Assembly: GCA_038891615.1 (NCBI GenBank)
Contig: JAWADY010000001.1
Location: 96,001 to 160,000 of the forward strand
Source: Candidatus Woesearchaeota archaeon
Lineage (GTDB): Archaea; Nanobdellota; Nanobdellia; Woesearchaeales; ARS49
Reading direction: 5' to 3'
Length of the DNA: 64,000 bases
How positions within the stretch are numbered: position 1 is the stretch's first letter; each line of letters starts with the position of its first letter. Below, one piece after another: positions 3,621 to 51,816 of this stretch. The position numbers and the translations under genes are program-made. The notes under the pieces are model-generated. The model had not been told where the DNA came from. It saw nothing but the letters and a program-made list of their open reading frames with translations, and did not search any database.

Positions 3621-3699
3621 GGAGAAAGTGAAATAATTTCATCTATTTTGTGCTTTTTTAATTTGTTTGATAAACAGTCAGAGTTTTAAGTGTGACAAG

Positions 3700-3717
3700 T
3701 GTGACAAAAAAGTCATA
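3700..3717. promoter_or_regulatory. Palindromic operator TGTGAC-N6-GTCATA upstream of the tandem Fis-HTH gene
   Basis: Dyad symmetry; 3 nt upstream of TATA box TTTATATA (3721-3728); identical 19-mer GTGTGACAAAAAAGTCATA at 51798-51816. Confidence 0.7.
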
Positions 3718-3750
3718 ACATTTATATACCCAACAAATCCCTTTCTGTTA

Positions 3751-4443
3751 ATGGCATTTAATGATAAAAAGCATGCAATGGATGAAAAAAGGCTTGAATA
3801 TGTCATTGATGAACGTCTAAGGCAGGCTATTGACAGCACCTTGCTCAAGTACGGCTTACCAATAGCTAACAGTCTCAATCAGGACATAACAAATAGGATT
3901 AGCAAAAGTTCTGTACTTCTTTTTGACCCCGACACAAGCATCCCATTCAAAAAGGCAAAGCGCCTGTTCAAGAAATACTATCTAGAAAAGTTGCTCAAAA
4001 TACACGGTGGAAATATTTCTAGCGCTGCGAAGGCTGCAGGGATTGATAGACGTTCGCTTCATAGGCTCATTTCTACACTAAATATTTCTGTTGAAAGAAA
4101 GGGTATTAACAGAGCAAACTATCAAACAAACACTGTAAGCAAGATTTTTGAAGATGTGCTAGAAGGCTATAAAAGGTCTGCCAGTCAGCCAGAATTCAGG
4201 CTAAATCATCAAGAAATCACCAAGCTTTACAGATTAAGCCCAACGCTTTCCAGAGAACTTGTCAAGCACATTCCTTCAGTTACGCTAAAGGAGGCTGAAG
4301 AGGTTTTTGAGCAGAAATTTCTAAAACAGGCCCTTGAAAGAAATAACAAAAACATTTCAAGAACAGCAAGGGCAATAGGCATAAGATTTGAATCTCTTCA
4401 CAGAAAACTAAAGGAGATTGGTCTTCGTAATAATGTTGTTTAA
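3751..4443 (+). CDS. Transcriptional regulator with two tandem Fis/NtrC-type (HTH_8) helix-turn-helix domains
   Basis: Two repeats: FKKYYLEKLLKIHGGNISSAAKAAGIDRRSLHRLI and FEQKFLKQALERNNKNISRTARAIGIRFESLHRKL; start moved to ATG 3751, 23 nt after the TATA box. Confidence 0.85.
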   Translation: MAFNDKKHAMDEKRLEYVIDERLRQAIDSTLLKYGLPIANSLNQDITNRISKSSVLLFDPDTSIPFKKAKRLFKKYYLEKLLKIHGGNISSAAKAAGIDRRSLHRLISTLNISVERKGINRANYQTNTVSKIFEDVLEGYKRSASQPEFRLNHQEITKLYRLSPTLSRELVKHIPSVTLKEAEEVFEQKFLKQALERNNKNISRTARAIGIRFESLHRKLKEIGLRNNVV

Positions 4444-4474
4444 AAAGTAAAAACCAAAAGCAAAAAGCTTTATT

Positions 4475-5722
4475 TTACTTAAAGGCACCCGGATCAAAGA
4501 CCGGCGGCCTATTTACATCTTTCACCGTAACTGTTATTTTCTTTGTAGCAGTGTTTGTGCCATCTGTTGCAGTAACCGTTACTTCGTGCACTCCCGCATC
4601 ATCATATGTTGTCTTGTAAGTTGTGCTGTTCATCCATCCACTTATCTTTGTGGTTATAGAATCTCCTTCAGGGTCTGTTACATTGAACTTCAGCTCGACT
4701 GTTTCTCCTTCATTGACTGTTATATCCGTAAGACCTGTTATTTGTGGAGGCTGGTTTCCTTTCTGAACAACAATGAAAAATGCTATTTTATCTGTTAACT
4801 CGCCATCGCTAGCTGTTATGTTAATCCGGTACTTGCCTTCGTCTCCAACCTTTGTTTGCCAGACGCCTCGCTCATCAAATGGAGGACTAAAAACAAAACT
4901 TATCTTGTCACCATCTGGGTCTTTTGCATTTGGCAAAAGGGTTATCCTGTCGCCCTCGTTTACAACGAAGTCCTGGATTGGAGCTATTACAGGTGGCCTA
5001 TTTACATTCTCAACAATAATCTTGACTGTCTTCGTTGTTGCTTCCTTTCCATCTGTTGCTGTTATAGTAACATTGTAGCTTCCGGCGTCATTGAATGTCG
5101 TCTCGTAGCTGTTTGTTTTCATCCAACCAGAATAGCTTACCGTCACATTGTCACCATCAGGGTCTATTATTTCAGGAGAAATAATCACTTTCTCTCCTTC
5201 TTTTACCCTTATGATGTCTTCGGCGAGTTGTATAACTGGAGCCCTGTTTGCATGTTTTACAATTATCTTAACAGTTTGCGTTACAACATTTACTCCATCG
5301 GAAACGCTTATGTTAACAAGATACTCGCCAGCATCTCCTTTCTTTGTTTGCCAGGTTCCATTTTCAGAAAGAGGTGCGCTGAATGAATATGTGAGATTGT
5401 TTCCCTCCGGGTCTGTTGCCTTTAGATTAGGGAAGCTTACAAGCTCTCCTTCTGTAACTATTTTTGTTGGATATTCCTCTTCACTCATTGTGGTTGTTTT
5501 TTCACCACTTTCAGTAACATTAAGCGCTGGCGTTTTTGTTTCTTCAACGCCTTTTGTTACATTCTCGGCACCTTCAGCCCCTGTAACAGCACCGCCACTT
5601 ACTTCGGTTATAGGCTGTTGTTCACATGGTTGTTGCGCAGCTTGTTTTAACTGGCAACCCGCAAACACAAGCACTGCGAGAAATGCAACAATTAGCAGAA
5701 TGAATCGTTGCATCTTTTTCAT
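4475..5722 (-). CDS. Secreted lipoprotein-like protein with four tandem Ig/cadherin-like repeats
   Basis: Signal peptide with lipobox-like FAGC; repeats of N(R/Q)xP..V.EGE...DP(D/E)GD...G.Y.V.ITA(S/T)DG. Confidence 0.85.
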   Translation of the reverse strand: MKKMQRFILLIVAFLAVLVFAGCQLKQAAQQPCEQQPITEVSGGAVTGAEGAENVTKGVEETKTPALNVTESGEKTTTMSEEEYPTKIVTEGELVSFPNLKATDPEGNNLTYSFSAPLSENGTWQTKKGDAGEYLVNISVSDGVNVVTQTVKIIVKHANRAPVIQLAEDIIRVKEGEKVIISPEIIDPDGDNVTVSYSGWMKTNSYETTFNDAGSYNVTITATDGKEATTKTVKIIVENVNRPPVIAPIQDFVVNEGDRITLLPNAKDPDGDKISFVFSPPFDERGVWQTKVGDEGKYRINITASDGELTDKIAFFIVVQKGNQPPQITGLTDITVNEGETVELKFNVTDPEGDSITTKISGWMNSTTYKTTYDDAGVHEVTVTATDGTNTATKKITVTVKDVNRPPVFDPGAFK

Positions 5723-5784
5723 GAGCTTCCCCTCCTCTTTTGCCGCTTTGAACAGCTAGGATAATCTCCCCAATTTCCTACCAA

Positions 5785-5802
5785 TGTAACAATAGTGTCA
5801 CT
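5785..5802. promoter_or_regulatory. Degenerate copy of the operator, TGTAAC-N6-GTCACT
   Basis: Same spacing as the 3700 site; about 20 nt downstream of the minus-strand TATA (5823-5830) of the Ig-repeat gene, over the predicted start site. Confidence 0.55.
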
Positions 5803-5900
5803 ATTCTGAAATAGGTAAGGCATATATAAATTTTGTTGTAGTGAAAAATATATTAGTAAAAACGGCAAATTGATGAAAAGTTGATTAGCAAAAATGTTCT

Positions 5901-6614
5901 TTAGGCTTTGCTGAATGCTTTTTGCCGAGCAGGCTTTAGGCGCTTAATCTTTAAAGCAGAAACCCTTCCAGATTCGAGATGAAGGTCGATATAGAAATCT
6001 CCGCTTATAGTTGACTCTTGTACAATCCTTTCTAAAAGCAACTCTCGCGCAAAAACAGAAGACTTTATGCTTTTATCGAGGACAAAATATATTGGAAGAT
6101 GATTTATGCCATGTTCGTTCAGGAAGCTTCCGTACTCTTTTGTCACGTCTCTAAATAGGAACAAAGTTAATGGTTCCTCATGCAATCGTTTGGTTGGAAT
6201 GTAAAGTGTCTCTTCTTTCGCTTCAAACATGAATGCTCCACTTTTTTGTGCCTCAATTGGATCCTTGCTGGAAATTTCAAGCAAATTATTTGTTTCCTCC
6301 GTTTTTAGAAAAAAATATCTTCCTTTGCTGGATATGTTCGTCGCAAATTTTGGTGACTTAAGAATTAGGTTGTTCTTTTTGTCGGCAACGACAATCCTGC
6401 CGTCAGCAAAATAATTAAAACTTTCTGCAACCCAGGTCCATGTAGAATTTGCCACGCTGCCAATGTCAGAGCTTATCCTAACCTCTGCTAAGTCACGACT
6501 GGTAATCAATTCAAGCCCATTTTGTTTCAAAGCCCTTATCCCTTTGTCAAAAGGGCCGGTGTACAAAAAAAAGTTCAATACCTTATCTTTTTTTACAATG
6601 CTTTCGTATTGCAC
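5901..6614 (-). CDS. Hypothetical protein
   Basis: 237-aa ORF filling the gap downstream of tRNA-Leu; no recognisable motif. Confidence 0.6.
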   Translation of the reverse strand: MQYESIVKKDKVLNFFLYTGPFDKGIRALKQNGLELITSRDLAEVRISSDIGSVANSTWTWVAESFNYFADGRIVVADKKNNLILKSPKFATNISSKGRYFFLKTEETNNLLEISSKDPIEAQKSGAFMFEAKEETLYIPTKRLHEEPLTLFLFRDVTKEYGSFLNEHGINHLPIYFVLDKSIKSSVFARELLLERIVQESTISGDFYIDLHLESGRVSALKIKRLKPARQKAFSKA

Positions 6615-6673
6615 AATATGCTTAATGATTTTCTTTTATTAAAACTTTGTGAATACTACTGTTTTGATCAAAC

Positions 6674-6757
6674 TGCGGCGGACAGGATTCGAACCTGCGT
6701 AGGCACTAAGCCAGCAGCTCCTGAAGCTGTCCCGTTTGGCCACTCCGGCACCGCCGC
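6674..6757 (-). tRNA. tRNA-Leu (CAG)
   Basis: Cloverleaf GCGGCGG.../...CCGCCGC-A, anticodon loop TT-CAG-GA, long variable arm, GGTTCGAATCC T-arm. Confidence 0.95.
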
Positions 6758-6795
6758 ACAGTCTTTTTTTCCACAACGAATGTTTAAATAATTTA

Positions 6796-7713
6796 TCATT
6801 TCTTTTTCCATCCGGTTCTGGCTCTCTCAAGCGCTTTCAGAACCCTTTTTTTGTCAAAACCATACCCTTCAACTAACAGTTCTAGAATAGCCGGTTCATT
6901 TATATCTTTCCACTTAATCTTGTAACGGTCTGTTATTGGCATTGTCTTTATGTGCTCAAAAACCTCTTGCCAAGAATATTCAAAGTTCCAACCAGCATCT
7001 CTGAAAAGCTTGTCAAAATCATTACCATACTGCTTCACAAGTTTAAGCCCTTTTTTTGGGCCTATGCCATGAATGCCTGGATTAAAATCTGTGCCTATAA
7101 GCATTGCAAGGGCAATGAGTTGTTTTTGGTCAATCCCAAGCTGCTGTAACAGTTCCTTGAGCTCTATAAGATAAGTGCCGGTAAGTACAAAACCTTTTTT
7201 TCTCGGTAGCCATCTGCGTTTTGCAAGACTAAAATTTACTATCATTCTTTTTGCCCCAAACAAAAGGCTATCAAAATCCTGGCTGGCGACCGCCCAGCAA
7301 TCTCCTCTTGTTGTCATAAATGCTGCCTGTGCTTCTGCTTCGCTTGGGGCCTGAAGCCATGGTACGCCTAAGCCTTCAAGCAGTTGCTTGCTGCTCAAAA
7401 GGACATGTTCGCTGACAGTTTCAGTTACTCTCGGTTGAAACTCTCCACGCACAATTCTTTCATGCTTACCTATTTCAAGCCATGGACCATCAAATACAAA
7501 AACAGGTTTTATTCCAATGCTCATCAACCTTGTTGTTCTGTAAAAAAGCCCAACAAGATGGCTAGTAAGCCTTCCTTTTCTGTCAGTGAGTCTTGGCATT
7601 GTTTTGAGAAACTGATAAAGTTCGATGAATGCATCTATTGCAATCGATTTTCCTTTTAGTTCTTTGAAGCTTATTGCCTTTCTTGGAACAATTGCAGAGA
7701 TATTAAAGCCCAC
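6796..7713 (-). CDS. fen: Flap endonuclease-1 family nuclease (shortened helical arch, no obvious PIP box)
   Basis: IAIDA..LYQFL, PVFVFDG, APSEAEAQAA, SQDFDSLLFGA, GTDFN.GI.GIGPKK motifs; GTG start after GAGGTGA RBS. Confidence 0.85.
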   Translation of the reverse strand: MGFNISAIVPRKAISFKELKGKSIAIDAFIELYQFLKTMPRLTDRKGRLTSHLVGLFYRTTRLMSIGIKPVFVFDGPWLEIGKHERIVRGEFQPRVTETVSEHVLLSSKQLLEGLGVPWLQAPSEAEAQAAFMTTRGDCWAVASQDFDSLLFGAKRMIVNFSLAKRRWLPRKKGFVLTGTYLIELKELLQQLGIDQKQLIALAMLIGTDFNPGIHGIGPKKGLKLVKQYGNDFDKLFRDAGWNFEYSWQEVFEHIKTMPITDRYKIKWKDINEPAILELLVEGYGFDKKRVLKALERARTGWKKK

Positions 7714-7738
7714 AAATTTCACCTCGCTTTATAAGTTA

Positions 7739-8431
7739 TCATGGAATCATCTTTCTCTTTCTCAATTTTTGAGGAGTGTACGCTCTTTTGTGCGGCTTTA
7801 TTCGTAACCATTTCTTTTTCATTGCAACTTCCCATTGGGGAAGGAGCTTCTCCAACTTCCACACCCACAGCAGTCTCCAATCCCGCCATAATCCCTTCAA
7901 AAAATTTTTTGGCAAGCCAAGTTTTTCTGTGAGTGTTACTATCTTTTTTTCCGCCTCAGCATTCTTGATGTGGGCAGCCCTTCTACGCGGCCGACACCAC
8001 TCCAAAATTGGTGCGACCTTCTTCATTGCAGAGATTATTTTTTGTGCAGCCCTTGCTGCGGTGATACCTTTGTGATAACGCTTCTCCCTCAAGCCGCCCC
8101 AAAAATTAAAATCATAATGCCAGTGCTCAAGAGCCATTTTATGAAAAAAATCAAGTTCACGATGGTCGTAGCTTGCAATGTAGAATTTCAATGTCCGCGC
8201 ATCTAGTAGGTACCTAAAAATCTTTGCAAGCAGGGCCTCGTCTTGCTCATGACCAGAACGAACAATTTTAGCCGTGAGAATCTCATAAGCTGTTCCAGTG
8301 GTTGAATCGTATACGTCAAATATAACCTCTTTATGACGTCTTGCCTCAACAACCACAGAATGCCCTTTGGCTTTTAACTCCGCTGCCAGCTTTTCTTTGG
8401 CTTTGTCATGAAGTTCCTTGTACCAACTCAT
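7739..8431 (-). CDS. Hypothetical basic protein, possibly PD-(D/E)XK restriction-endonuclease-like fold
   Basis: N-terminal H..AK helix then VVVE...FDVYD...AYEILT pattern; ATGA overlap with the upstream Thg1 gene. Confidence 0.5.
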   Translation of the reverse strand: MSWYKELHDKAKEKLAAELKAKGHSVVVEARRHKEVIFDVYDSTTGTAYEILTAKIVRSGHEQDEALLAKIFRYLLDARTLKFYIASYDHRELDFFHKMALEHWHYDFNFWGGLREKRYHKGITAARAAQKIISAMKKVAPILEWCRPRRRAAHIKNAEAEKKIVTLTEKLGLPKNFLKGLWRDWRLLWVWKLEKLLPQWEVAMKKKWLRIKPHKRAYTPQKLRKRKMIP

Positions 8432-9288
8432 CTTTCTTTAATCAGCTTTTCAATGAGCCTTTTACCTTCGCTGCTCATGAAGGTCTTCGGGGAAGTGTCT
8501 ACAACGATTTTATGCCTGACCACACGCACTCTTCTTTTTTTAATCGGATTGTAACCCACCTTTAAAAAGGGCTGTTTATAGAGGAGGATGCCCCATCTCT
8601 GCCATGCGGGTGTTTTGGAAAGGTCAATACCGTGCTTTTTGCAAAGCTTCTCAAGCTCTGCTGTTTTCATTCCAGATAGCTTTCTGGAAACCGATCGCGG
8701 TGAAAGACCAGCACGAAAGAGAACCTTCTGTGCCCATGCATTGTTATGATTTCTAAAACACTCTGCTTGGCGCCAGCGGAGATATTTGAGTATTAATCCT
8801 CTTTTACTTTTTTTGTTTCTACTAACTAGAGGAATGCATCTGCAGTCAAAAGCAACCACTTTCTTTTTCTTGAAAAGCCTGGCTAACTCATTTGTCAGTT
8901 TCGAGGAAGCAACTGCAGCAAAAATTGAATCAATCTTTTCAATCCGTCTAAAATTGACGGGTTTGAGAAACAAAAGGTTTATTTCGTCTGAGAAAATATA
9001 AGCCAAAGTGGGGTTAAACTTTTGAAATAACTCTTTTGTTGTTTCTATTAGCGCTTCGAGAAAACGCTTGTCAAAAGGTTTTGTAAATCTTAAACTTTTT
9101 GAAACAGAGTGAAATGCCCAACCGTCTAGCCTAACGAAAAAAGCTGTGCCAGGAAGTTCTATTCCAGAATAGACCTCATAATCAATGAGTGATAGCTTAC
9201 CACTGCTTGCTTCTGATTTTGGTTTTGGAAAGCCTAATGCCTTCCATGGCTTTTCGACACCTTTTACTCTAGAAGTTGACTGAGGCAT
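8428..9288 (-). CDS. tRNA(His) guanylyltransferase Thg1-like protein (3'-5' polymerase family)
   Basis: VRLDGWAFH, AYIFSDEINLLF, FDCR, YLRWRQ.EC.RN, PAWQRWG motifs; start codon uncertain. Confidence 0.9.
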   Translation of the reverse strand: MPQSTSRVKGVEKPWKALGFPKPKSEASSGKLSLIDYEVYSGIELPGTAFFVRLDGWAFHSVSKSLRFTKPFDKRFLEALIETTKELFQKFNPTLAYIFSDEINLLFLKPVNFRRIEKIDSIFAAVASSKLTNELARLFKKKKVVAFDCRCIPLVSRNKKSKRGLILKYLRWRQAECFRNHNNAWAQKVLFRAGLSPRSVSRKLSGMKTAELEKLCKKHGIDLSKTPAWQRWGILLYKQPFLKVGYNPIKKRRVRVVRHKIVVDTSPKTFMSSEGKRLIEKLIKER

Positions 9289-9694
9289 GCTTTCGTGGGG
9301 TTTCAGCGACTTGTTCATGTAAATAGGTTAATATTCCTGAGAGCTCCTTGAATTTTGATGTGAAAAGTATTTTTCTAAACCTGGTGTTTACCTTCACGCC
9401 TCTCTGCTGCAACTCTGATTTTATTCTTTCTGCTAATTTATTTGAGTTTTTGTTGACATCAAAAATAAGTATACATTCTTTGCCTGATTCTATTATTTTT
9501 GAAAGAAGTCCGAACTCTGGCTTAGTGTAGAAATAAACATTTTTTATCTGAAGAGAAGAAAGAATGTCAGCGTCACTTTTATGCTGCACGAGAACAATCC
9601 GATCCCGCGAGGCATTCGCAAGGTGTTGCAGCCACTCTGTGAATTTGTGAATCTCTTCTTCTCCTTTTGGCTGTGGCTTGCGTTTTCTTGCCAT
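9269..9694 (-). CDS. Small standalone Toprim-like protein, catalytic acidic residues degenerate
   Basis: IVLVQHKSD in place of I(I/V)VEGxxD, and ILIFDVN in place of DxD. Confidence 0.6.
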   Translation of the reverse strand: MARKRKPQPKGEEEIHKFTEWLQHLANASRDRIVLVQHKSDADILSSLQIKNVYFYTKPEFGLLSKIIESGKECILIFDVNKNSNKLAERIKSELQQRGVKVNTRFRKILFTSKFKELSGILTYLHEQVAETPRKHASVNF

Positions 9695-9807
9695 TTGCTC
9701 CCTCTTTTTTTCATCCGCTTAAGAGCATTTGCTTTTTAAGCTTTATGCGTTATACCAGCCTACGGGGCGCAATATTTAAAAAGCATAAATTTTAACTTTT
9801 TTTGAGA

Positions 9808-10482
9808 ATGGCTGAAGTAAAAACAGATGCTCAAGAGATAAAGAAAGGGCCAGTCGTAACTCTCAAGAGAAAGCGCTGGTATCAAATCATTGCTCCAAAG
9901 CTGTTCAATGAGCAGAAGCTTGGAGAGGCTTTTGTGGCAGAACCTGAAAAATTGATTGGAAGAAGTGTCGTAGTAAGTATGATGAGCCTAACAGGAGAGC
10001 CACAGAAACAGAACATAAACCTATATTTCAGGATAAAAGGGGTTGAAGGCGAAAAACTAGTTACAGAACTAGAAGGTTACAAAATAAGCACATCTGCATT
10101 AAGAAAAGTAGCGAGAAGGGGAAAAAACAAAATAGAAGAATCGCTGCTCGTGACAACAAAAGATGGCAAAAACATTCGTATAAAACCAATCCTTGTAACG
10201 AGCGGTAAAGCAAAAGGTGGCGCTATTGCAGCAATTCACAAATCTTTAAGAAGCCAAGTGGCTATTTTTGCTGCAAAGCTTTCATCCGAAGAACTCTTTT
10301 CACAAATTATTAGCAATAACTTTCAACGCACAATTGCTACTTCTATGAAGAAAATATATCCCATAAGTTTCTCGGAGATAAAATGGGCCCAGATTGTAAA
10401 AGTGCCTTTATTAAAAGCTGAAGAAAGCTCACAGCAACCTGTTGAATCGCAACAGCTTCCTGTGCAACCCAGCCAGCCTTAG
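9808..10482 (+). CDS. rps3ae: 30S ribosomal protein S3Ae (eS1)
   Basis: KRKRWYQIIAPKLF, PEKLIGR, RKVARRGKNKIE, TKDG..IRIKP. Confidence 0.92.
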   Translation: MAEVKTDAQEIKKGPVVTLKRKRWYQIIAPKLFNEQKLGEAFVAEPEKLIGRSVVVSMMSLTGEPQKQNINLYFRIKGVEGEKLVTELEGYKISTSALRKVARRGKNKIEESLLVTTKDGKNIRIKPILVTSGKAKGGAIAAIHKSLRSQVAIFAAKLSSEELFSQIISNNFQRTIATSMKKIYPISFSEIKWAQIVKVPLLKAEESSQQPVESQQLPVQPSQP

Positions 10483-10594
10483 AGTCCTGCTTCTTAATTG
10501 GTGATAATTAAATTTGATTCTGATAGCATGTTGCTTGCGTTATAATGAACTTTACTCCAAAAGTTTTAAAAAGCAATTTTTGTTAAATTTTACT

Positions 10595-11206
10595 ATGGAA
10601 CTGATAGCACATGGTGCAGAAGCAAAGCTATATCGCGATGGCGATAAGCTCGTAAAGGAAAGAATTCCAAAAGCCTACAGGCTGCCTGAACTAGATAAAA
10701 GACTGCGCGCCTTTAGGACGAGAAGAGAAGCAAAAATGTTTGAAAGGCTACAGGCACTGGGCTTTCCAGCTCCTGCGCTCAGAAGCTTTTCTGACACATC
10801 AATGCGAATAGAGATGGACTTTTTACATGGCACACCAGTCAAAGACGTACTTCAACAGAATCCAACTGAATTTGTACGAGAAATCGGAAGAAAAATCGGT
10901 CTGTTGCACAAAGCAGATATAATCCACTCAGACCTAACAACTTCAAATATGATTCTAAGCAATGGGGAGATAAAATTTATAGACTTTGGCTTAAGTTTTG
11001 TTTCTCAAAAAATAGAAGACAAAGCTGTTGATCTGCACCTTTTTGACAGGGCACTTTATTCTGCGCATGGCGATATTTATGAGCAGTGCATTCCTGCTTT
11101 GTTTGAAGGGTATCGCGAAAGCTATCCAGAAGCAGAAGCGGTTCTTGCGCGACTTAAAATTGTTCAACTAAGAGGCCGAAACAAGAAAAAACAGGCTATC
11201 GGATAA
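10595..11206 (+). CDS. bud32: KEOPS complex kinase Bud32
   Basis: GAEA, KERIPKAYR, RTRREAK, IIHSDLTTSNM, IDFGL, EDKAVDLHLF, RGR; start set at ATG about 22 nt after the TATA box. Confidence 0.95.
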   Translation: MELIAHGAEAKLYRDGDKLVKERIPKAYRLPELDKRLRAFRTRREAKMFERLQALGFPAPALRSFSDTSMRIEMDFLHGTPVKDVLQQNPTEFVREIGRKIGLLHKADIIHSDLTTSNMILSNGEIKFIDFGLSFVSQKIEDKAVDLHLFDRALYSAHGDIYEQCIPALFEGYRESYPEAEAVLARLKIVQLRGRNKKKQAIG

Positions 11207-11223
11207 TTTTGTTTTGCTCCTCA

Positions 11224-12105: not shown

Positions 12106-12168
12106 TTTTGCAATCACCTCTTTCTTCATTCATTAAACAGAGCTGTTTCTTTTAAAATGTTACTGCAA

Positions 12169-12270
12169 TGGGGCCGGGAGGATTTGAACCCCCGTTGGAC
12201 GCAAATTGGCTTGTGTCAAAATTTGTTCGTCCCCAAGCGCCAGTCATAGACCAAACTAGACCACGGCCCC
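12169..12270 (-). tRNA. tRNA-Pro (GGG) with a 27-nt intron at 37/38 (12204-12230)
   Basis: GGGGCCG/CGGCCCC-A acceptor; anticodon stem GGCGC/GCGTC; TT-GGG-G then insert; GGTTCAAATCC. Confidence 0.9.
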
Positions 12271-12356
12271 TTTGGTTCGATGCATCATTTTGCTTAAAAA
12301 GCTTTTCCATAAGTTTCATGCAAAGATTTTTATTTAATTCAAACTTTGAGAGCAGA

Positions 12357-42597: not shown

Positions 42598-42601
42598 CGA
42601 G

Positions 42602-42829: not shown

Positions 42830-42838
42830 TTTATCACC

Positions 42839-43378: not shown

Positions 43379-43455
43379 CGCACACCTCTTTTTATGCAGT
43401 TTTTCCAAATAAAAGTTTGAATATCTTTATAAAGCTTTCTACACCTTTGTTTTGA

Positions 43456-44052: not shown

Positions 44053-44178
44053 GAAGGAATCATAAACAACAATATCATAATTGCCACTACAGCTAAACAT
44101 CCTTTTTTAGCCAAAGAGTTTTAGTCTTAAAACAAGAAAAGCACAAAATCTAAAAAGTCTTTTACGCTGTTTTTTGAT

Positions 44179-45579
44179 ATGAAAAAACCAACAAAAACCC
44201 TTTCAGGAGTAACGCCGGTTGCAGTAATGACAGAACCTCGTGCTTGCGACCATGGAACCTGCGTTTATTGCCCAAGCCTTGGAGTTTCACAAAGCTACAC
44301 TCCCCGCTCGCCTGCGGTAATGAGAGCGTTGCGTGTGGGATATGACCCCTTTGGTCAAGTAAGGACAAGACTTGAACATTACAAGGCAATGGGTCATTCG
44401 AGGGACAAGATTGAACTGATAGTAATGGGTGGAACTTTTTTGCAATATCCTCTTGACTACCAATACTCCTTTATCAAGCGATGTTATGATGCATTGAATG
44501 GAAAAGAAGCGAGAAATCTTGCTGTTGCAAAGAAAATAAACGAAAGAGCAAAGCACCGTTGTGTTGCCCTTTGCATTGAAACAAGACCAGACAATTGTAC
44601 CGAGAACGATATCAAAAGAATGCTCGATTTTGGCACAACAAGGGTTGAGTTAGGAATCCAAATGCCAGATGACCAGCTTTACGCCATAACCAAACGAGGG
44701 CATTCTGTTAGGGATGTTGTCGAGGCAACAGCGAGGCTCAAGGATTGTGGTTTCAAAGTCGGTTATCACATCATGCCAGGACTTCCAGGAAGCACTCCTG
44801 AAAAAGATCTTGCAATGTTCAAACAGATTTTTGATGACGAAAACTTTAGACCCGATCAAGTAAAGATATATCCAACACAGGTTGTCAAAGGAGCTGAGCT
44901 TGCAGAATGGTATGCTCAAGGCATCTACGAGCCTTACTCAGACCATGTTATTGAGGAACTTTTAGAGAAAATGATTCTTATGGTGCCTGAATATTGCAGG
45001 GTGATGAGAATAATGCGGGAGATTCCTCCGATGTATCTTGTTGCAGGCACAAAATGGGTTAATTTTAGAGCAAAGATTGAGGAAAAGCTCAGAAAAAAGC
45101 ATAGGGCAGATGTCAAGGAAATAAGGTTAAGAGAGATTGGACTTGCTATGCGTGATGGGGTGAAAATAGATCAAAAAATTGAAATAAAAGTACTGCCATA
45201 TGCAGCAAGCAAAGGAAAAGAATATTTTATAAGTGTTGTCAACAACCAGAACATACTATTCGGATTGTGCAGGCTTAGGATTCCCCACAAGACTTTTCTT
45301 CCTGAGCTTCATGATGCTGCTCTTGTACGAGAGTTACATGTTTATGGGCAGACGGTTGGGCTTAAAGATGTGATAGATAAGGTTTGCGCTGACACGACAA
45401 TGTTGAGAGTGTGGCAGCACAAGGGCCTTGGAAAAAGGCTCATGGAAGAAGCTGAAAGAATTGCAAAAGAAGAAGGGATGAGAAGGATTGCGGTTATTAG
45501 TGGAGTTGGTGTTCGCGAGTATTACAGAAAACTTGGCTATAGGCTTAATGGAAGTTATATGTGTAAAACCTTAGGATGA
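44179..45579 (+). CDS. elp3: Elp3 tRNA U34 acetyltransferase (radical SAM + GNAT)
   Basis: CDHGTCVYCP, SYT, MGGTF, IETRPD, KIYPT, RELHVYG, QHKGLG, ISGVGVREYY. Confidence 0.95.
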   Translation: MKKPTKTLSGVTPVAVMTEPRACDHGTCVYCPSLGVSQSYTPRSPAVMRALRVGYDPFGQVRTRLEHYKAMGHSRDKIELIVMGGTFLQYPLDYQYSFIKRCYDALNGKEARNLAVAKKINERAKHRCVALCIETRPDNCTENDIKRMLDFGTTRVELGIQMPDDQLYAITKRGHSVRDVVEATARLKDCGFKVGYHIMPGLPGSTPEKDLAMFKQIFDDENFRPDQVKIYPTQVVKGAELAEWYAQGIYEPYSDHVIEELLEKMILMVPEYCRVMRIMREIPPMYLVAGTKWVNFRAKIEEKLRKKHRADVKEIRLREIGLAMRDGVKIDQKIEIKVLPYAASKGKEYFISVVNNQNILFGLCRLRIPHKTFLPELHDAALVRELHVYGQTVGLKDVIDKVCADTTMLRVWQHKGLGKRLMEEAERIAKEEGMRRIAVISGVGVREYYRKLGYRLNGSYMCKTLG

Positions 45580-45631
45580 TAAGTTTTGAGAAAAAGAGCG
45601 TTCTTTTACAACGAGCTTTAATGAGTTTTAT

Positions 45632-46222
45632 TTATTTCTTTGTATACTTTAGGCGTTCGTCACCACAGAGATTTATATAAACAGATTTCCACCAGTCCGA
45701 AGCGTGTATGTTTGGGTCATAAACTAATTTACTTATTATTTTGCGTTGATTACCACTGAGTATCCGATTTTTCGGCACATTCTTCTTTTTTGCCAGCTCG
45801 TCATAAATGCCAAGCAAGTGGTCGTAGAGCTGTCCATCTGCATTAATTTTGCCTATTTTAGCAATTTTATTTGTTTTAAGATAAGGAACAAGGTGCTCGA
45901 GAACAACGCCAAATCCTAAAAAGTCATCATAGGCATCAAGCTTTTCTTTTAAAGGCTCTTTTGCAAAATAATCTAGCAAATTTGAATTATTCTCAAGATT
46001 TAACTTTTTCAGTTCTCCTTTAAGCCTTTCTCGGCTTATTGGTATATCTGGGAGAGGGTTGCTCGTATAGTTGTTTTCGCTAACTTTTTTTTCAGAAACA
46101 GCTTCCCAAACAACATCTCTCCTTATTTCCTTCTTTCCTTCGTGTAGGACTAGATACACATTATAGCGATTAAAACTCGTTGGCTCATAGTCAATAAAGG
46201 CTTCAATTCCGTCAGCTTCCAT
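45632..46222 (-). CDS. Hypothetical protein
   Basis: AAGGAG RBS and TATA-like element upstream of ATG 46222. Confidence 0.6.
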   Translation of the reverse strand: MEADGIEAFIDYEPTSFNRYNVYLVLHEGKKEIRRDVVWEAVSEKKVSENNYTSNPLPDIPISRERLKGELKKLNLENNSNLLDYFAKEPLKEKLDAYDDFLGFGVVLEHLVPYLKTNKIAKIGKINADGQLYDHLLGIYDELAKKKNVPKNRILSGNQRKIISKLVYDPNIHASDWWKSVYINLCGDERLKYTKK

Positions 46223-46275
46223 AGTTTCGCTCCTTAAAAAGAGACAAGAATACAAATGGATATATAAATGTTTTG

Positions 46276-47724
46276 TCACTTCACAGTTATTATTTCCTCA
46301 TGTAAACGTATCCTGTTCTTACCTGTTCTTTTTGCTGCCAAAAGAGCACCATCTGAAGCCTTAATGGTAAGATTCAGTGCTTCAATCAGCTTCTCTTCAG
46401 AAACGGCTAATCCTGTTCCTTTGAATGTTGCAACACCACCGCTGACAGTCACAGCAGCCCTATCATATATGCCAAGTTTTGGTAAAATCTCTTTCGTCTT
46501 TTCCTCTAAAGAAGCCTTAATCCTTTCTGCAATGACATAAGCATCACTTTGATTTGCAAAAACCGCTAAAACAAATTCCTCGCCTCCGAATCTACAAAGG
46601 AGGTCCTCCCGCCTTTTAAGTGATGCAATGGAATTTGATACTATTTTCAAGACAGCATCTCCAATATCGTGACCATATTTATCATTTATTTGTTTGAAAT
46701 CGTCTATGTCAAAAAAGATTATAGAAAGCTGTGCACCAAGCTGTTGAGCAGCCATGAATCGCTTTTTTAAGTCTCTATCAAAATATCTTCTATTGAACAG
46801 CCTCGTCAATGGGTCTGTGATGGACTCCCATGCTCTCTCAAAAAATGTTGTTTTCAACTTGTATAAAGACATTGTTCCATATCTTGAAAGCGTGGCTTTA
46901 CACGCATCATCCAGAAGACCAGAATATGCATGCAATCGAGAGAGGTACTCCAAAACCTCTTCAGGTGTTGTCAGAGTTCTCAAATCTTTTTTGATATCAG
47001 CCAGAGTTATCTTCTTGTATTTTGAGACAAGCCTCTTAAGTTTTGTTACAACTGATATTTTCTCCTTCAAAAACTTATTGAGAGGCTCAACTATTCTAGA
47101 TTTTTCTTCATAAACAAGTTGGTAGAGGTTGCTTGCAGCTGCTGCTAGCTTTGTTTTCAGCCATTCCAGCTCTTCCTTGCCTGCCCTTTCCAACGACTGG
47201 AGTACATCAAGTTCAATGTCTAAATTTGCTTGCTCGCGTGTGATAAGCTCAGCTAAAGAGTTGACGATTCTTGCCAACTCCTCTTCGATGCTCCACTCCG
47301 TCCGTTTTAGCTCTAATGAAAGAGCCACTTGCTGAGATAAAGCGGATAGCTTTTCTTTTAGTGCATCCCCAGGCTTACCTTCGGCATAAGCCTTTTGTAT
47401 CAGCGCAAGTTCTTGCGTGAAAATAGAATCTTCAACAGGCCTTAGAGCAAGCTCTTTTTTCCGAATCTCCTCTTCCTCTTTTTTGTATTTCAAAATCTCT
47501 TCAAATGCAACCTTTAGGTCTTTTTCGATTTTATCAATGAGTGGTTTTAAAGAGACATCTTTTCCAGCAATTTTGTCGCTTATCGCATCTATAAGCCGTA
47601 TGACATCCTTTCTATGGTCCCGCAATGAAGAAATTCTTTTTTCAAAACTGGCTATGACCTCCTGCTCATGCACACCAAGCTGCAGGAGCAGGTCTAATAT
47701 TTTTTGAATATCGTTGTTTGACAT
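46276..47724 (-). CDS. Diguanylate cyclase (GGDEF domain) with N-terminal coiled-coil region
   Basis: TDPLT.LFNRR, FDIDDFKQIND.YGHDIGD, RREDLLCRFGGEEF, VTVSGGVA, AK..GKNR. Confidence 0.93.
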   Translation of the reverse strand: MSNNDIQKILDLLLQLGVHEQEVIASFEKRISSLRDHRKDVIRLIDAISDKIAGKDVSLKPLIDKIEKDLKVAFEEILKYKKEEEEIRKKELALRPVEDSIFTQELALIQKAYAEGKPGDALKEKLSALSQQVALSLELKRTEWSIEEELARIVNSLAELITREQANLDIELDVLQSLERAGKEELEWLKTKLAAAASNLYQLVYEEKSRIVEPLNKFLKEKISVVTKLKRLVSKYKKITLADIKKDLRTLTTPEEVLEYLSRLHAYSGLLDDACKATLSRYGTMSLYKLKTTFFERAWESITDPLTRLFNRRYFDRDLKKRFMAAQQLGAQLSIIFFDIDDFKQINDKYGHDIGDAVLKIVSNSIASLKRREDLLCRFGGEEFVLAVFANQSDAYVIAERIKASLEEKTKEILPKLGIYDRAAVTVSGGVATFKGTGLAVSEEKLIEALNLTIKASDGALLAAKRTGKNRIRLHEEIITVK

Positions 47725-47727
47725 GCC

Positions 47728-48846
47728 TTAAAGAATAAACATCTTTTCAACAATCTTTTTTGCCTTTTCGCGTTTTCTTTGATGACTTTTAAGGAATCTT
47801 TCAAGCTTTGTAATAAGGATCTGCTTTAGCTCACTAGTGAGCAGGCTACCACTTTTGTAATCATCATAAATCTTTTGCAGCTTTGCATCATCAGGTTCGA
47901 ATAATGCCCGTAAGTATTGGAATGCAACATCGATATCAGGATTGCCGCCTTTTTTTCTATGTTCTGCAATTGTTGGCTGACCTCCTGAAAAAGCATATTT
48001 TCTTATTTTTAACGCCACCTCTTCAAGGCTGTCTGTCAACGCTATGAATGATGTTGGATCCGATGAAGACATCTTCCCACCCTTTAAGCCTGGAATGAAA
48101 ATATGATAGATTGAACTGGGTTGAAAAAACTTCAGCCCTTTTATTCTTTGACAAATGTCTCTAGTTAATCTTATGTGAGGATCTTGGTCAATCCCGACAG
48201 GAACAACGACAGGCATCGATCCCTCGAATTCAGGAAGTTGTGGATGCAATATGTCGGAAGCTTGCAAAAGTGCAGAAATCATTTTTCCAGGAGTAATCTC
48301 ACCATAAACCGATTTGAACTCATTAAAAGTGACATATCTTGCTACTAAATTCTGCAATCTATAATATGCATTTGATTTGGTTGCATTGTTTGAACGGCCG
48401 CTTTGAAAGTAAATGTCACAGTTCTTGCGCTTAAGCCCAAGAGCAAAATAGTTTGTTATGTAATCATCCAAAGCTATTCTCCTGCTTTCTTCAAGGCTTT
48501 GCGCTCTTGCTGTGTATGCCTCGATGTCTGCAACTGCAATGTAAAGTCTTGCACCGAGCCTTTGCCAAAAAATCATTTGTTGTGCAACAAGCATGTGACC
48601 AAGATGAAACTTTCCGGTTGGCATTAGCCCTGTCATCATGACAAAAGGCTTTTTTGCTTTTATGGAATCAAGAATTTGTTGCAAATCCCTATGAGCAAAA
48701 ATTATTCTACGCCTAAAAAGATGGCTTTCTTCAAACTCTTTCGGAAGCCTCTCAATCAAGGAAAGCCCAAACTCCTTCACGAGCCTTGAATAATCTATTT
48801 TTCCAGAAACCTCCCAAGGGGTTATAAATGTTTCATCACGCTGCAT
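47728..48846 (-). CDS. trpS: Tryptophan--tRNA ligase
   Basis: TPWEV, HRD, HLGH, DQDPH, KMSSS, AFSGG. Confidence 0.95.
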   Translation of the reverse strand: MQRDETFITPWEVSGKIDYSRLVKEFGLSLIERLPKEFEESHLFRRRIIFAHRDLQQILDSIKAKKPFVMMTGLMPTGKFHLGHMLVAQQMIFWQRLGARLYIAVADIEAYTARAQSLEESRRIALDDYITNYFALGLKRKNCDIYFQSGRSNNATKSNAYYRLQNLVARYVTFNEFKSVYGEITPGKMISALLQASDILHPQLPEFEGSMPVVVPVGIDQDPHIRLTRDICQRIKGLKFFQPSSIYHIFIPGLKGGKMSSSDPTSFIALTDSLEEVALKIRKYAFSGGQPTIAEHRKKGGNPDIDVAFQYLRALFEPDDAKLQKIYDDYKSGSLLTSELKQILITKLERFLKSHQRKREKAKKIVEKMFIL

Positions 48847-48895
48847 AAGTAGTTGGCTACTAAAGGCTTATTTAAAGCTAGCGCTCATGAAGGCT

Positions 48896-50746
48896 TTACA
48901 AAGCAATCTCCACATCTCTACCGAATATTTTTTTAAGGCTTTCAAACAGAGCCTCTCTTACAAAAACGCGCTGTGGAATTGCAATCCTTACTAATGCTTT
49001 TTCGAGCTCTTCAGGACTTGCATCTTCAAGTTCACCAAGACTACCATCTGGGTTTATTTTTGCTTTAGAAATCTTCTTTGGTTCTGCATCGATATCGTGA
49101 GTTATGAAAGCTGTTTCGCCCAAAAGCAAAACTTCGCCAAATTTTTCTCCGCGTTTTACTTTTATTTTCGCCCTCTCAAGCTCATAAACCCGTTTGCGTT
49201 GCATCCACTCAACAATCGCTCTTATGAATTCGCTTGCCTCACGTCTAACCTTTTCAACTTCAACCTTCGTAAGCTTGCCCGAATCGTAATCCTGCCGTGC
49301 TTTCATAATTGAATGTAAGAGCCTTGCCAATTTCGGAGAAAGTTTTCCTGTTGCAACAAGTTTTTCTTCAAATAAATCAACAAGTTCTGCTTCAGGAATG
49401 TTCTCGCGGCCTTCAAGCCTCAGCGCATCCCGCAGAACAGCCAGAATGCTATCATAAATGTTCAACACAGATTCTCTATCTTTCAACTCTTGTATTTTTG
49501 CAAAAAGCTCTTTAATCTTTTTCAGATAGTCTTCAGCGCCTGTCAGCAGCTGGTCTACTTCAACGCCTGAGATTTGTTTTTTCTCTGCATGCTCAAGCTC
49601 CTTCCTTGTAGCAATAACTTTTTCAAGTAAATTGACATCCTTATTCTCAAGCATCCCTTCTTTTTTAACAAAAATCTCTCGCATTAGTTCAGGTGTTTCC
49701 TTTGGGGTTGGTGGTGGCAAACCATAAAGCATTAAGGCAGCTTGACTTGGAGTTAGGACTGCCCAAAAAATGTCTTCCATCCCTATATCACGGAGTTTGA
49801 ATCTTGCGCGCTCTAACATCTGCTCTCCACCAGACATGAACATATCAATAGCTTCTACACTAGGTTTTATTCGTCCCATCCTGAGAAGCTGCTTCCATGG
49901 CATGAAGATTCCTCTGTCATAAAATGGCACGCCGTCCCTCAAAAATGTAAAAATGACAGGATTTGCTTCTCTGATGTTGTCCCAAAACTCTGTGAGAATG
50001 TATACCTGGATGTTCAGCTTATTTCTAATGCCGGTTATCTCTCCGGCTTCAATTCCCATTCCTATGATTATCGCCCTTAGCTTATCCTTGAGTTCTGCCC
50101 TCGTCATCCTCTTCACATCCGTATCGTCAATGACGACAAAAACATCTATATCTGATTCCTTTGTTGCACGGCCTTGAACAAGGCTTCCTGCAAGCACATA
50201 AGCAACAATGTATTTCTCAAACTTTTTCAGGACCATATTCTTATGAATCTCTGCAATTTTTATTGCTGAGAGCATTCCTCTGTCAAATATTGGTGCTGAA
50301 AGTGCTATCATTTCAAGAAAATCATACTTTCCATCATAGCAAGCTTGCCAAACTTCTGAAAGCAAAAGGGCTTGAGGAGCAAGGTTTGGGTCAATTTCCT
50401 TTGCGGAGGCTTCAAGTATTGAAACTAATTTTCCTTTCAATTCATCTTTTGTCATCTTTGTAGGTTCTGTATCATCGACAAGCACGAGTATGTTTATTTT
50501 CTTCTCTTTGTCAGGTTTTTCTATGTCTTCTTTGCTTGGAGGAAGAAGCGCAATTCCGACGATATATTTTTCAAATTTTTCAAGTATCAACTTTTGGAAA
50601 CGCTCTAATTTTGCTTTTATTTCAGCAAGTTTTTCCTGAAGTTCCTTTGGTAGCTTTTCAATACCTTCGACAGCTTGGCCAGCAGTGCCACCCATTTTTT
50701 TTGTTTCATCCTCCTTCTTTACAGTTTCTTTTGCTTTTTTTGCCAT
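48896..50746 (-). CDS. Duplicated nucleotidyltransferase (MNT-like) domain protein with HEPN-like helical domains
   Basis: Internal duplication FEKYIVG..LVDDT..MTKDELK / FEKYIVA..GSLVQG.ATKESDIDVFVVIDDT..MTRAELK; only the second copy keeps GS..DxD. Confidence 0.8.
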   Translation of the reverse strand: MAKKAKETVKKEDETKKMGGTAGQAVEGIEKLPKELQEKLAEIKAKLERFQKLILEKFEKYIVGIALLPPSKEDIEKPDKEKKINILVLVDDTEPTKMTKDELKGKLVSILEASAKEIDPNLAPQALLLSEVWQACYDGKYDFLEMIALSAPIFDRGMLSAIKIAEIHKNMVLKKFEKYIVAYVLAGSLVQGRATKESDIDVFVVIDDTDVKRMTRAELKDKLRAIIIGMGIEAGEITGIRNKLNIQVYILTEFWDNIREANPVIFTFLRDGVPFYDRGIFMPWKQLLRMGRIKPSVEAIDMFMSGGEQMLERARFKLRDIGMEDIFWAVLTPSQAALMLYGLPPPTPKETPELMREIFVKKEGMLENKDVNLLEKVIATRKELEHAEKKQISGVEVDQLLTGAEDYLKKIKELFAKIQELKDRESVLNIYDSILAVLRDALRLEGRENIPEAELVDLFEEKLVATGKLSPKLARLLHSIMKARQDYDSGKLTKVEVEKVRREASEFIRAIVEWMQRKRVYELERAKIKVKRGEKFGEVLLLGETAFITHDIDAEPKKISKAKINPDGSLGELEDASPEELEKALVRIAIPQRVFVREALFESLKKIFGRDVEIAL

Positions 50747-50756
50747 TCAAATCACC

Positions 50757-51527
50757 TTACTGTTGCAAGAGCACGATTTGTTCAAGAGGTCTTGGCACGC
50801 TTATGGAACCTGAAGCGAATTGATAGAAAAGGGCAAGAGGACTCACTCCTTTTGAGAGCTGTTCTGAAACAAAGTTGAAAGCAACATCATGAATACCGTT
50901 TTGCGCTGGCCTTGATAAAAAAGGAGCTATTGACTTTGAAAGTCCAGCCACGTCATTTTCATAGATAGTTTTCATCCACCCAAAGCTAAATGCGTATGCT
51001 TTTGCTTCCTCGTCAATAGGATTCTGCAAGCTTTTTGTCAATACATGACCAATCTCATGACCCACTGTCAGCATAACCTTATCTAAATGACCTTTTTTTA
51101 CGAACACTCTGCTTATTCCGCGCTCTTCATTTAATGAAAACCCTTCTACAATGCCAGCAGCGTTGTTCATACGCGAGAACTCCTCTGGCTCACAAAGTTC
51201 TATTGCAATATTTCCTGGGAATTCCTTCTTCATCATAAGCTTGAATGTCTTCCTAATGTATTCAAAAATCTCAGAGAGCTCACTGACAAAGGGCGAGGTT
51301 GGTCTGTTTTTTAGAAGGAAATTCTCGGCAACAAAAAAATGACTAAGGCTTTTATGCGAAAGAGAAAAGTTGTAATCAGACAGATGACTTTCATGCTCAT
51401 AACCACGAATGTCTGGAAATTGAATATGATAATTTTGATTGGATCGAGGAATATAGCCAAAAACAGGTTGGAAAAAATAAGTCCTTACAACCGGAAATGT
51501 AGAGTAATAAATACTTCCCATTTTCAT
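50757..51527 (-). CDS. Hypothetical protein with a zincin HEXXH motif
   Basis: TVGHEIGHV ... EEAKAYAF. Confidence 0.65.
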   Translation of the reverse strand: MKMGSIYYSTFPVVRTYFFQPVFGYIPRSNQNYHIQFPDIRGYEHESHLSDYNFSLSHKSLSHFFVAENFLLKNRPTSPFVSELSEIFEYIRKTFKLMMKKEFPGNIAIELCEPEEFSRMNNAAGIVEGFSLNEERGISRVFVKKGHLDKVMLTVGHEIGHVLTKSLQNPIDEEAKAYAFSFGWMKTIYENDVAGLSKSIAPFLSRPAQNGIHDVAFNFVSEQLSKGVSPLALFYQFASGSISVPRPLEQIVLLQQ

Positions 51528-51538
51528 TCAAAAACTTT

Positions 51539-51745
51539 TTATTTCAGCTTTTCTTCTAGAGGTTTTTTGGCTTTTTTTGCTTCCTCGACAATGTCCACTC
51601 CTAAATCCTTCAGCGCTTTGATGTGCATTTGCATTAGTTGCTCTACTATTGCCACAAGCCTTACAAGTTCCTCACGCTCTTTTGCGAGTGTCGTAAGCGA
51701 GCCCTTATGAAAGCCTATTTGTTCTTCTTTTGAAACTTCTGCCAT
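51539..51745 (-). CDS. Small coiled-coil hypothetical protein
   Basis: GGGGTGA RBS; 68 aa; first gene of an apparent 3-gene operon. Confidence 0.75.
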   Translation of the reverse strand: MAEVSKEEQIGFHKGSLTTLAKEREELVRLVAIVEQLMQMHIKALKDLGVDIVEEAKKAKKPLEEKLK

Positions 51746-51798
51746 TTTTCACCCCCAATAATAGGAAATATTACATCAAGCACACTATTTAAAGATGG

Positions 51799-51816
51799 TG
51801 TGACAAAAAAGTCATA
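51799..51816. promoter_or_regulatory. Operator TGTGAC-N6-GTCATA, identical to the 3700 site
   Basis: Exact 19-nt match to 3699-3717; 5 nt upstream of the minus-strand TATA TTTAAATA (51786-51793). Confidence 0.7.

Follow-up and report, generated by a model that had tools for sequence, protein, structure and literature searches.

Why should one 19-nucleotide sequence stand, letter for letter, beside the TATA boxes of two genes that lie 48 kb apart in a small archaeal genome? Both copies are found in a stretch of 64,000 nucleotides from a Candidatus Woesearchaeota archaeon (GenBank assembly GCA_038891615.1), which we call the window and whose positions are used below. The window corresponds to positions 96001 to 160000 of the first contig (C1) in a small, DPANN-type genome of 661,270 bp (five contigs, 97.9% complete). 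One copy precedes a gene for a 230-amino-acid (aa) protein with two helix-turn-helix (HTH) units of the Fis/NtrC type, hereafter the regulator. The other precedes an operon coding for a 68-aa protein (cc68), a zincin-fold protein, and a protein with a nucleotidyltransferase (NTase) domain. On comparative genomic evidence, the 18-bp box within the repeat is established as a real cis-element, and the regulator probably controls its own gene and this one conserved three-gene operon by means of it. We place the probability of the complete explanation, in which the box would be the operator of the double-HTH protein, the regulon would comprise two promoters, a single chain would occupy each box, and the effect would be repression, at roughly 0.72.

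The original prediction had reported exact copies of the repeat, GTGTGACAAAAAAGTCATA, at positions 3699 to 3717 and 51798 to 51816, and both are present at these coordinates. No third match exists in the window when up to three mismatches are allowed, and the entire 661,270-bp genome contains only two copies. Shuffled versions of the window are expected to hold 0.03 matches, and two or more copies were obtained in 0 of 100 shuffles. At the regulator gene, the box proper (TGTGAC-AAAAAA-GTCATA, positions 3700 to 3717, plus strand) is followed 3 nt past its end by the TATA box TTTATATA (3721 to 3728, plus strand), which is located 22 nt ahead of the ATG. This TATA-to-ATG spacing is the same in orthologues, and the mRNA is presumably leaderless. 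At the operon, the box reads TATGAC-TTTTTT-GTCACA on the minus strand (51816 to 51799), and the TATA box TTTAAATA (51793 to 51786, minus strand) begins 5 nt past it, upstream of the 68-aa open reading frame. The distances of 3 nt and 5 nt thus agree with those first claimed. We refer to this upstream box at either promoter as O1. The TATA-distal arm of O1 is the GAC half at the regulator gene and the TCAT half at the operon.

The two exact copies also stand apart when scored with a position weight matrix (PWM) trained on the regulator promoters of related genomes, whose maximum is 29.05 bits. Each reaches 28.9 bits, and the next best site in the genome reaches 17.6, a value to be compared with best scores of 14.0 to 22.2 bits in 20 genomes simulated with a Markov-1 model. 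At 8 bits or more there are 72 positions in the genome. Six sites besides the two exact boxes score between 15 and 17.6 bits, where about two are expected. Two of these weaker sites, at C3:82274 (17.2 bits) and C1:231165 (16.8 bits) and outside the window, adjoin TATA-like boxes of other genes; because each is without one invariant arm, they are kept as leads only. The looser pattern TGTRAC-N6-GTCAYW, for which a genome-wide scan had been proposed as a check, gave four matches, two of which are the exact copies. An additional TGTGAC half-site, which the original prediction noted at position 3691, is present as well (3691 to 3696) and belongs to an extra copy of GTGTGACAA (3690 to 3698, plus strand). 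The left arm has been duplicated, in that two copies of this sequence form a 9-bp tandem duplication spanning positions 3690 to 3707. The extra half-site was seen in none of the 19 orthologous regulator promoters compared.

Strong evidence for the box comes from its conservation at the promoter of the regulator itself. Regulator relatives were named at 80 loci, of which 76 have usable upstream sequence (three lie too near a contig end and one has no start codon). Within the 126 nt upstream of each start, with the sequence of the spacer left free, a count of the core GAC-N7-TCAT gave 74 occurrences spread over 52 of the 76 regions, or 7.73 per kb. Control spacers of 3 to 6 and 8 to 11 nucleotides give at most 0.42 per kb, and the density elsewhere in these loci is 0.21 per kb. 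Alignment of the 54 distinct boxes yields the consensus T-R-N-G-A-C-(A/T)6-R-T-C-A-T-R. The GAC of the left arm and the TCAT of the right arm are invariant, position 13 is a purine in every box, and at each of the six spacer positions between 47 and all 54 of the boxes have A or T. Positions 2 and 3 are variable.

Position and orientation are likewise constrained. The boxes point the same way in 66 of 74 cases, and their starts cluster at -51 to -54, which places the end of the box 3 nt ahead of the TATA box. A second cluster, at -15 to -21, lies over the start and often includes the ATG. Using a PWM threshold of 12 bits, a box is found in 55 of the 76 regions (upstream in 42 regions, downstream in 35, and at both places in 23), although this count is circular and descriptive only because the matrix was trained on the same 76 regions. 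The circularity is confined to that count, and the matrix scan of the source genome does not depend on the training loci. Phylogenetic footprinting, which had been suggested as a check, therefore finds the box kept across genera. The regulator gene carries a conserved candidate operator at its own TATA box or start in 52 of 76 promoters, as would be seen with autoregulation.

The same box recurs at the promoter of the cc68 operon. When 41 genomes of the family, 40 of them besides the source genome, were scanned for the box with up to two mismatches, 76 matches were recovered versus 18 for a backwards control. At no more than one mismatch the 40 other genomes hold 29 matches, comprising 10 at regulator promoters, 16 at cc68-operon promoters, and three elsewhere. 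The typical operon promoter consists of a box, 4 to 5 nt, the TATA box, about 25 nt, a second box, a Shine-Dalgarno sequence, and the ATG, with the two boxes about 54 bp apart. In several genera, one or two small and poorly conserved genes lie between the boxed promoter and cc68. The orientation of O1 at the cc68 promoters is opposite to that at the regulator promoters in nearly all cases.

A comparison of relatives that carry the regulator with those in which it was not found, also suggested in advance, speaks for a connection between the two. A cc68 gene was detected in 37 of 41 genomes from the order. Among regulator-bearing genomes of the family with at least 500 nt of sequence upstream of cc68 (a requirement that dropped G019, which offers only 17 nt), the box is present within 600 nt of the gene, at two mismatches or fewer, in 18 of 20. 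In families where the regulator was not found, 0 of 11 genomes show a box upstream of cc68 over as much as 1400 nt of sequence (545 nt in G032). Because the genomes share ancestry, these counts cannot be treated as independent. The tallies include three genomes flagged as unpublished (G009, G024, and G050). Without them, 18 of 20 becomes 17 of 18 and the 29 strong matches become 25 (8, 14, and 3), and no conclusion depends on these three genomes alone. Four genomes from other families have a match to the regulator. One of these, G036, has a box at cc68. In G031, a box stands behind the regulator's TATA box, and a boxed cc68 paralogue comes directly downstream of that gene. G040 has a start-site box at the regulator gene.

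A few additional boxes were encountered in individual lineages. At L023 (G053:C23), an exact box is located about 55 nt ahead of a gene for a 367-aa lipoprotein. A pair of boxes lies near a contig end at L055 (G008:C43), and clusters of three to four boxes occur at L057 and L058 (genomes G014 and G052) between divergent genes, one of which codes for a protein of 258 to 271 aa. These extra boxes are lineage-specific.

The regulator gene (3751 to 4443, plus strand) codes for a protein that belongs to the HTH_8 family (PF02954). The Pfam match scores 55.8 bits against a cut-off of 22 (E-value of 3.6e-15) and covers two separate stretches of the protein, with recognition helices at about residues 100 to 109 and 213 to 223. 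An AlphaFold model based on 20 orthologues is all-helical and of good confidence, with a predicted local distance difference test (pLDDT) score of 86.5 and a predicted template modelling score of 0.77. A profile search matches the NtrC4 domain with an E-value of 1e-9, and Foldseek aligns the C-terminal HTH to the NtrC4 domain with a probability of 1.0 and TM scores of 0.81 to 0.85. In the VIA structural comparison, the second unit (HTH2) resembles Fis (6m10) with a Z value of 7.4 and a root-mean-square deviation (rmsd) of 1.5 over 50 residues, and the first (HTH1) resembles NtrC4 (4fth) with a Z value of 6.8 and an rmsd of 2.4 over 67 residues. The DNA-binding domain of TyrR (1g2h) is also among the structural neighbours (Z of 5.3). 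Thus, both units have the three-helix fold of the Fis/NtrC group, although the Z values are moderate. Neither Foldseek nor VIA found a structural match to the whole chain.

The recognition helices of the two units are not alike. That of HTH1 carries the pattern D-R-R-S-x-H-R and that of HTH2 the pattern R-F/Y-E-T-L-H-R-K, and both are nearly invariant, which fits the invariant core bases of the box. At residue 213 of HTH2, a comparison across loci L071 to L150 finds tyrosine in place of phenylalanine (R-F/Y-E) mostly where position 3 of the box is A (TGAGAC). This trend may reflect a specificity contact or a clade effect, and we do not use it as evidence. No other trend emerged in our search for covariation between recognition-helix residues and the variable outer positions of the box, in which the pattern used for HTH1 missed many sequences.

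Within the family, 22 of the 24 other genera have an orthologue of the regulator, as do five of 16 sampled sister families, one of these through a partial match. The 80 loci with regulator relatives are labelled mostly as Candidatus Woesearchaeota or Nanoarchaeia, with a minority carrying other labels. At least 658 proteins belong to this protein family, almost all of them 210 to 225 aa long, and PF02954 is detected in nearly all of the 120 members shown out of 658. Database names for these proteins are 'hypothetical protein', 'helix-turn-helix domain-containing protein', and, from one annotation pipeline, 'DNA-binding NtrC family response regulator'. The last name is misleading. Pfam finds HTH families alone in the regulator, with no AAA+ or receiver domain, and the NCBIfam matches to NtrX, NorR, and GlrR involve only the last 50 to 75 residues, which are the DNA-binding ends, and fall far under the cut-offs. 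The central AAA+ domain for sigma-54 interaction that characterizes an enhancer-binding protein is therefore missing. The regulator is a member of HTH_8, and it is neither a Fis protein, nor an enhancer-binding protein of the TyrR or NtrC type, nor a response regulator.

How might such a protein act at these promoters? In the mechanism that we favor, the regulon in this genome would consist of the regulator's own promoter, making the gene autoregulated, and that of the cc68-zincin-NTase operon (51745 to 48896, minus strand). A single polypeptide would occupy a single box as a pseudo-dimer, with each of the unlike HTH units reading one of the unlike arms (TRNGAC and YATGAY) across the A/T-only spacer. 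O1 is located 3 to 5 bp upstream of the TATA box and hence would cover the element recognized by transcription factor B (BRE). The bound protein would block transcription factor B (TFB) and RNA polymerase, causing repression of the operon and negative autoregulation. Most relatives possess a further box that overlies the transcription start. These steps do not all deserve the same confidence. The comparative data make it highly probable that the regulator protein binds the box. Two unlike arms with fixed spacing and orientation, considered along with two unlike HTHs, make one chain per box the simplest reading, and we lean toward it. We favor repression over activation a little more firmly, since the proximal arm lies where the BRE is expected and the second box of relatives lies over the start.

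Several observations weigh against this model. The strict core is missing from 24 of the 76 regulator promoters, certain start codons were picked automatically, and the 55-of-76 count is circular as described above. Two regulator-bearing genomes, G006 and G024, have no box upstream of cc68 even at three mismatches, and G031, G035, and G040 are without a box at the main cc68 gene. The genome G015, which is 98% complete, has a cc68 box, and no regulator was found in it by protein or profile search; its congener G053 has both box and regulator. Furthermore, kinship confounds the co-occurrence, in that most regulator-bearing genomes come from one family, and a factor peculiar to that family would produce an identical pattern. 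A simple steric model gives no account of the opposite orientation of O1 at the two classes of promoters. Finally, the start-site box is absent from both promoters of the source genome, which has kept the upstream box alone, and therefore occlusion would depend there on the BRE-proximal box by itself. The source genome is also the smallest that was searched, at 661 kb compared with rounded sizes of 0.7 to 1.8 Mb for the others.

The retention of the upstream box alone bears on the most serious competing explanation, in which the regulon is the same and the protein is an activator that recruits or stabilizes TATA-binding protein (TBP) and TFB from upstream of the TATA box. Archaeal activators such as Ptr2 and TFB-RF1 are known to operate in this manner from just upstream of the TATA box. 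An activator would fit a site that always precedes the TATA box and never covers it, as well as the retention of O1 alone at both promoters of the source genome. In addition, the operon is highly conserved and probably must be expressed. However, the gap between O1 and the TATA box measures just 3 to 5 bp, with the proximal arm where the BRE is expected, and the second box that covers the start or ATG in 35 of 76 regulator promoters and in many cc68 promoters occupies a classic repressor position. We consider activation to be possible but the less likely of the two outcomes by a good distance.

Alternatively, the box might be real but bound by a different factor, or be a special core-promoter element, in which case the gene for the double-HTH protein would simply be among its targets. 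The presence of a box in G015 without a detectable regulator would be explained in this way, and the co-occurrence of box and regulator largely follows one family. Against this stands the box that 52 of 76 species have at the promoter of the regulator itself. Outside the main family, the box is present exactly where the regulator is (G031, G036, and G040), and it is absent from 11 of 11 genomes without the regulator. Moreover, a general promoter element does not fit a genome with just two sites, and an 18-bp box with two arms suits a protein with two HTHs. We regard a separate factor as quite improbable.

The original prediction had included a third promoter, that of an adjacent gene for a lipoprotein with immunoglobulin-like (Ig)/PKD repeats (4475 to 5722, minus strand). 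It thus proposed a three-promoter regulon, of which the regulator gene and the operon are borne out by conserved boxes and the lipoprotein gene is not. The string TGTAAC-AATAGT-GTCACT is indeed present at positions 5785 to 5802. It lies 18 to 39 nt downstream of the Ig TATA box, where an operator over the start site would be expected. The Ig gene also neighbors the regulator gene in 28 of 101 loci, although these loci are redundant and not independent; the pair is convergent in most of them and co-directional in some. Moreover, the exact box at G053:C23 precedes an unrelated lipoprotein gene. As an operator, however, the string does not exceed chance, and it fails by the measures that single out the other two sites. 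It scores 4.9 bits on one strand and 1.8 on the other, when 72 genomic positions score 8 or more. One of its arms is without GAC, and its spacer contains a G and so is not composed of A and T only. No site of 8 bits or more exists at any of six distinct orthologous Ig promoters, one of which offered 54 nt only. Because of the low score and the lack of conservation at orthologues, we reject the Ig gene as a target and find its co-control with the other two very unlikely.

The local symmetry at this location belongs to a different element, a perfect 15-bp palindrome (AATAGTG-T-CACTATT) at positions 5791 to 5805, which overlaps the rejected string and is located 18 to 32 nt past the Ig TATA box. 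This palindrome may be the site of another factor. The sequence GAATAGTAACA is kept in two orthologous Ig leaders (L087 and L133), and ACTACAA..TTTAAATA is common to Ig promoters.

There is practically no chance that the 19-mers are a chance repeat or the att-like ends of a 48-kb element inserted by a tRNA gene, for although they are direct repeats 48 kb apart and a tRNA gene with an intron is located about 105 nt from one of them, two copies arose in 0 of 100 shuffles, the interval holds ordinary conserved genes such as that for a class I tRNA synthetase, and a mobile element is ruled out by recurrence of the box at the same orthologous promoters where these are on different contigs and by GC content that reveals no clear island bounded by the two copies.

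We return to the reading in which the regulator represses its own gene and the operon, and compare it with known systems. The HTH_8 family is common to the regulator and the DNA-binding domains of NtrC4 (PDB 3e7l/4fth), NtrC1 (4l5e), and Fis (6m10, 1etk). Those proteins carry one HTH per chain and act as homodimers, whereas the regulator has two in one 230-aa chain, joined by helical hairpins. Also, unlike NtrC-family activators, it has no AAA+ or receiver domain, and an archaeon would not be expected to use sigma-54. The bacterial activators MarA, SoxS, and Rob of the AraC family bind as monomers with two HTHs to an asymmetric box in fixed orientation and contact RNA polymerase. They resemble the regulator in working mode, namely the use of unlike HTHs on an asymmetric and oriented site, but their HTH family is unrelated and no homology is claimed.

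Among archaeal proteins, Phr of Pyrococcus, MDR1, and LrpA are autoregulated repressors that act at the BRE/TATA region or the start and are homodimers of winged-helix, Lrp, or DtxR type. The regulator would share with them a bacterial-type HTH, a palindromic or palindrome-like operator at its own promoter and a few targets, and a position suited to blocking TFB, TBP, or polymerase, and it would differ in having a tandem HTH of the Fis type within one chain. A bacterial-type operator on a promoter served by TBP and TFB is the usual mode of archaeal regulators, and so this part of the original prediction is true but not special.

Fis offers a parallel in site architecture. As described in PMC3711457, stable Fis sites have a degenerate 15-bp G/C-N13-C/G motif, and their central A/T tract permits narrowing of the minor groove so that closely spaced HTHs fit. 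The regulator box similarly has two arms and an A/T-rich center, but its invariant G and C are separated by 10 bp (G-N10-C) rather than by 13 as in Fis. The regulator also differs from the nucleoid protein Fis, a homodimer of about 98 aa with many degenerate sites, in its length of 230 aa, its two HTHs, and its two outstanding sites in the genome.

The geometry of the box had also been likened to that of the TyrR box. According to PMC4374768, the TyrR box is TGTAAA-N6-TTTACA, requires G-N14-C, and causes repression or activation depending on its position. Both boxes are 18 bp long, have a 6+6+6 layout, and can start with TGT. This likeness is superficial, since the outer TGT/ACA bases are the least conserved in the regulator box, and GAC and TCAT are its invariant parts. 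Specifically, the G-N14-C that is invariant in TyrR boxes is absent, because G occupies position 2 in 36 of 54 boxes only and position 17 carries T in all 54. TyrR itself is a large ligand-binding AAA+ protein, whereas the regulator has no obvious ligand domain.

The operon that would be controlled begins with cc68 (51745 to 51539, minus strand), a helical 68-aa protein that maintains 59 to 83% identity across the order. The Atlas clusters closest to it consist of unnamed hypothetical proteins from Nanobdellota and Woesearchaeota archaea, and a Pfam search at E-values up to 10 produced chance-level rows only, with no named relative. The second gene (51527 to 50757, minus strand) codes for a 256-aa protein with a HEIGH motif and a downstream glutamate. 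Orthologues open with 50 to 120 residues rich in serine, glycine, and tyrosine, corresponding to residues 1 to 62 here, which are disordered in a model with a pLDDT of 78.9. Residues H157, E158, H161, E173, and E174 are invariant among orthologues. In VIA comparisons, the model matches oligoendopeptidase F with a Z value of 10.7 over 193 residues, followed by DPP III, LTA4H, and M32 peptidases, so that gluzincins head the matches. Foldseek returns weak rows of the ACE/ACE2 type only (E-values of 0.03 or more). No Pfam family matches at E-values up to 10, and the alignment gave 0 matches to PDB profiles at E-values up to 1. The HExxH motif with a third ligand in a modelled zincin fold is what characterizes a zincin metallopeptidase, and by motif and predicted fold we assign the protein to this group.

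The last gene of the unit (50746 to 48896, minus strand) codes for a 616-aa protein with one clear NTase domain (Pfam Polbeta/NTP_transf_2, residues 174 to 226); the HEPN domain that had been proposed alongside it was not confirmed. Its three nearest Atlas clusters are nameless Woesearchaeota hypothetical proteins that carry NTP_transf_2. NCBIfam gave sub-threshold rows for NTase domains only among the operon proteins. The three genes are tightly packed. The next gene, for a class I tRNA synthetase of the Trp/Tyr type, has its own TATA box (TTTAAATA, 48869 to 48876) located 22 nt ahead of its ATG, and we therefore take the first three genes as the regulated unit. A search for RNA runs that contain positions 45600 to 52900 listed none.

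Some neighbors of the two promoters deserve mention. A gene directly upstream of the regulator gene (24 to 3620, plus strand) codes for a 1198-aa, cysteine-rich protein that matches no Pfam family at an E-value of 0.01 or lower. A protein with a GGDEF diguanylate-cyclase domain (46276 to 47724, minus strand; Pfam E-value of 2.1e-35) is encoded in this DPANN archaeon by a gene that starts 3 nt past the stop codon of the tRNA synthetase gene. Directly upstream of the operon operator lies an intron-containing tRNA gene (51922 to 52026, minus strand) with a long variable arm, a 24-nt insert, and an anticodon that is apparently UGA (Ser). This gene was missed by ARAGORN and by an Rfam scan of the whole window, and a local scan scores it at 44.7 bits (E-value of 2e-8).

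The makeup of the operon allows for a more speculative extension, namely a closed stress switch. In this scheme, boxes that flank the TATA box would let the repressor hold the core promoter in a clamp, and a product of the operon would remove or modify the repressor, whether by zincin cleavage, by nucleotidylation through the NTase, or with cc68 serving as an anti-repressor. The adjacency of the regulator gene and a cc68 paralogue in one family is compatible with this idea. However, the operon is also present in 11 genomes in which the regulator was not found, and the 50 VIA rows for the zincin include no ImmA/IrrE-type peptidase. We consider the switch improbable by any of these routes. If true, the switch would stand as the archaeal equivalent of ImmA/ImmR or IrrE/DdrO, assembled from unrelated parts and conserved in a large DPANN lineage.

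HTH proteins that regulate their own genes through palindrome-like operators at archaeal promoters are a known kind of system. The present candidate regulon is well supported by sequence comparisons, and what appears to be new in it is the double Fis-type form in a single chain. Full-text searches, which do not extend to subscription-only papers, found no description of a Fis-type or tandem-HTH archaeal regulator, of the regulator box, or of a transcription factor-operator pair for Woesearchaeota. Members of this large, uncultured DPANN lineage have genomes of 0.7 to 1.8 Mb and few regulators. The present candidate provides a precise pair for testing, consisting of an easily expressed protein of 230 aa and an 18-bp box whose invariant bases are known. 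It would extend the Fis/NtrC-type HTH, which is regarded as bacterial, to an archaeal form with two HTHs in one chain on an asymmetric site. It also points to a nameless module of cc68, zincin, and nucleotidyltransferase that is conserved throughout the order and that cells evidently need to switch.

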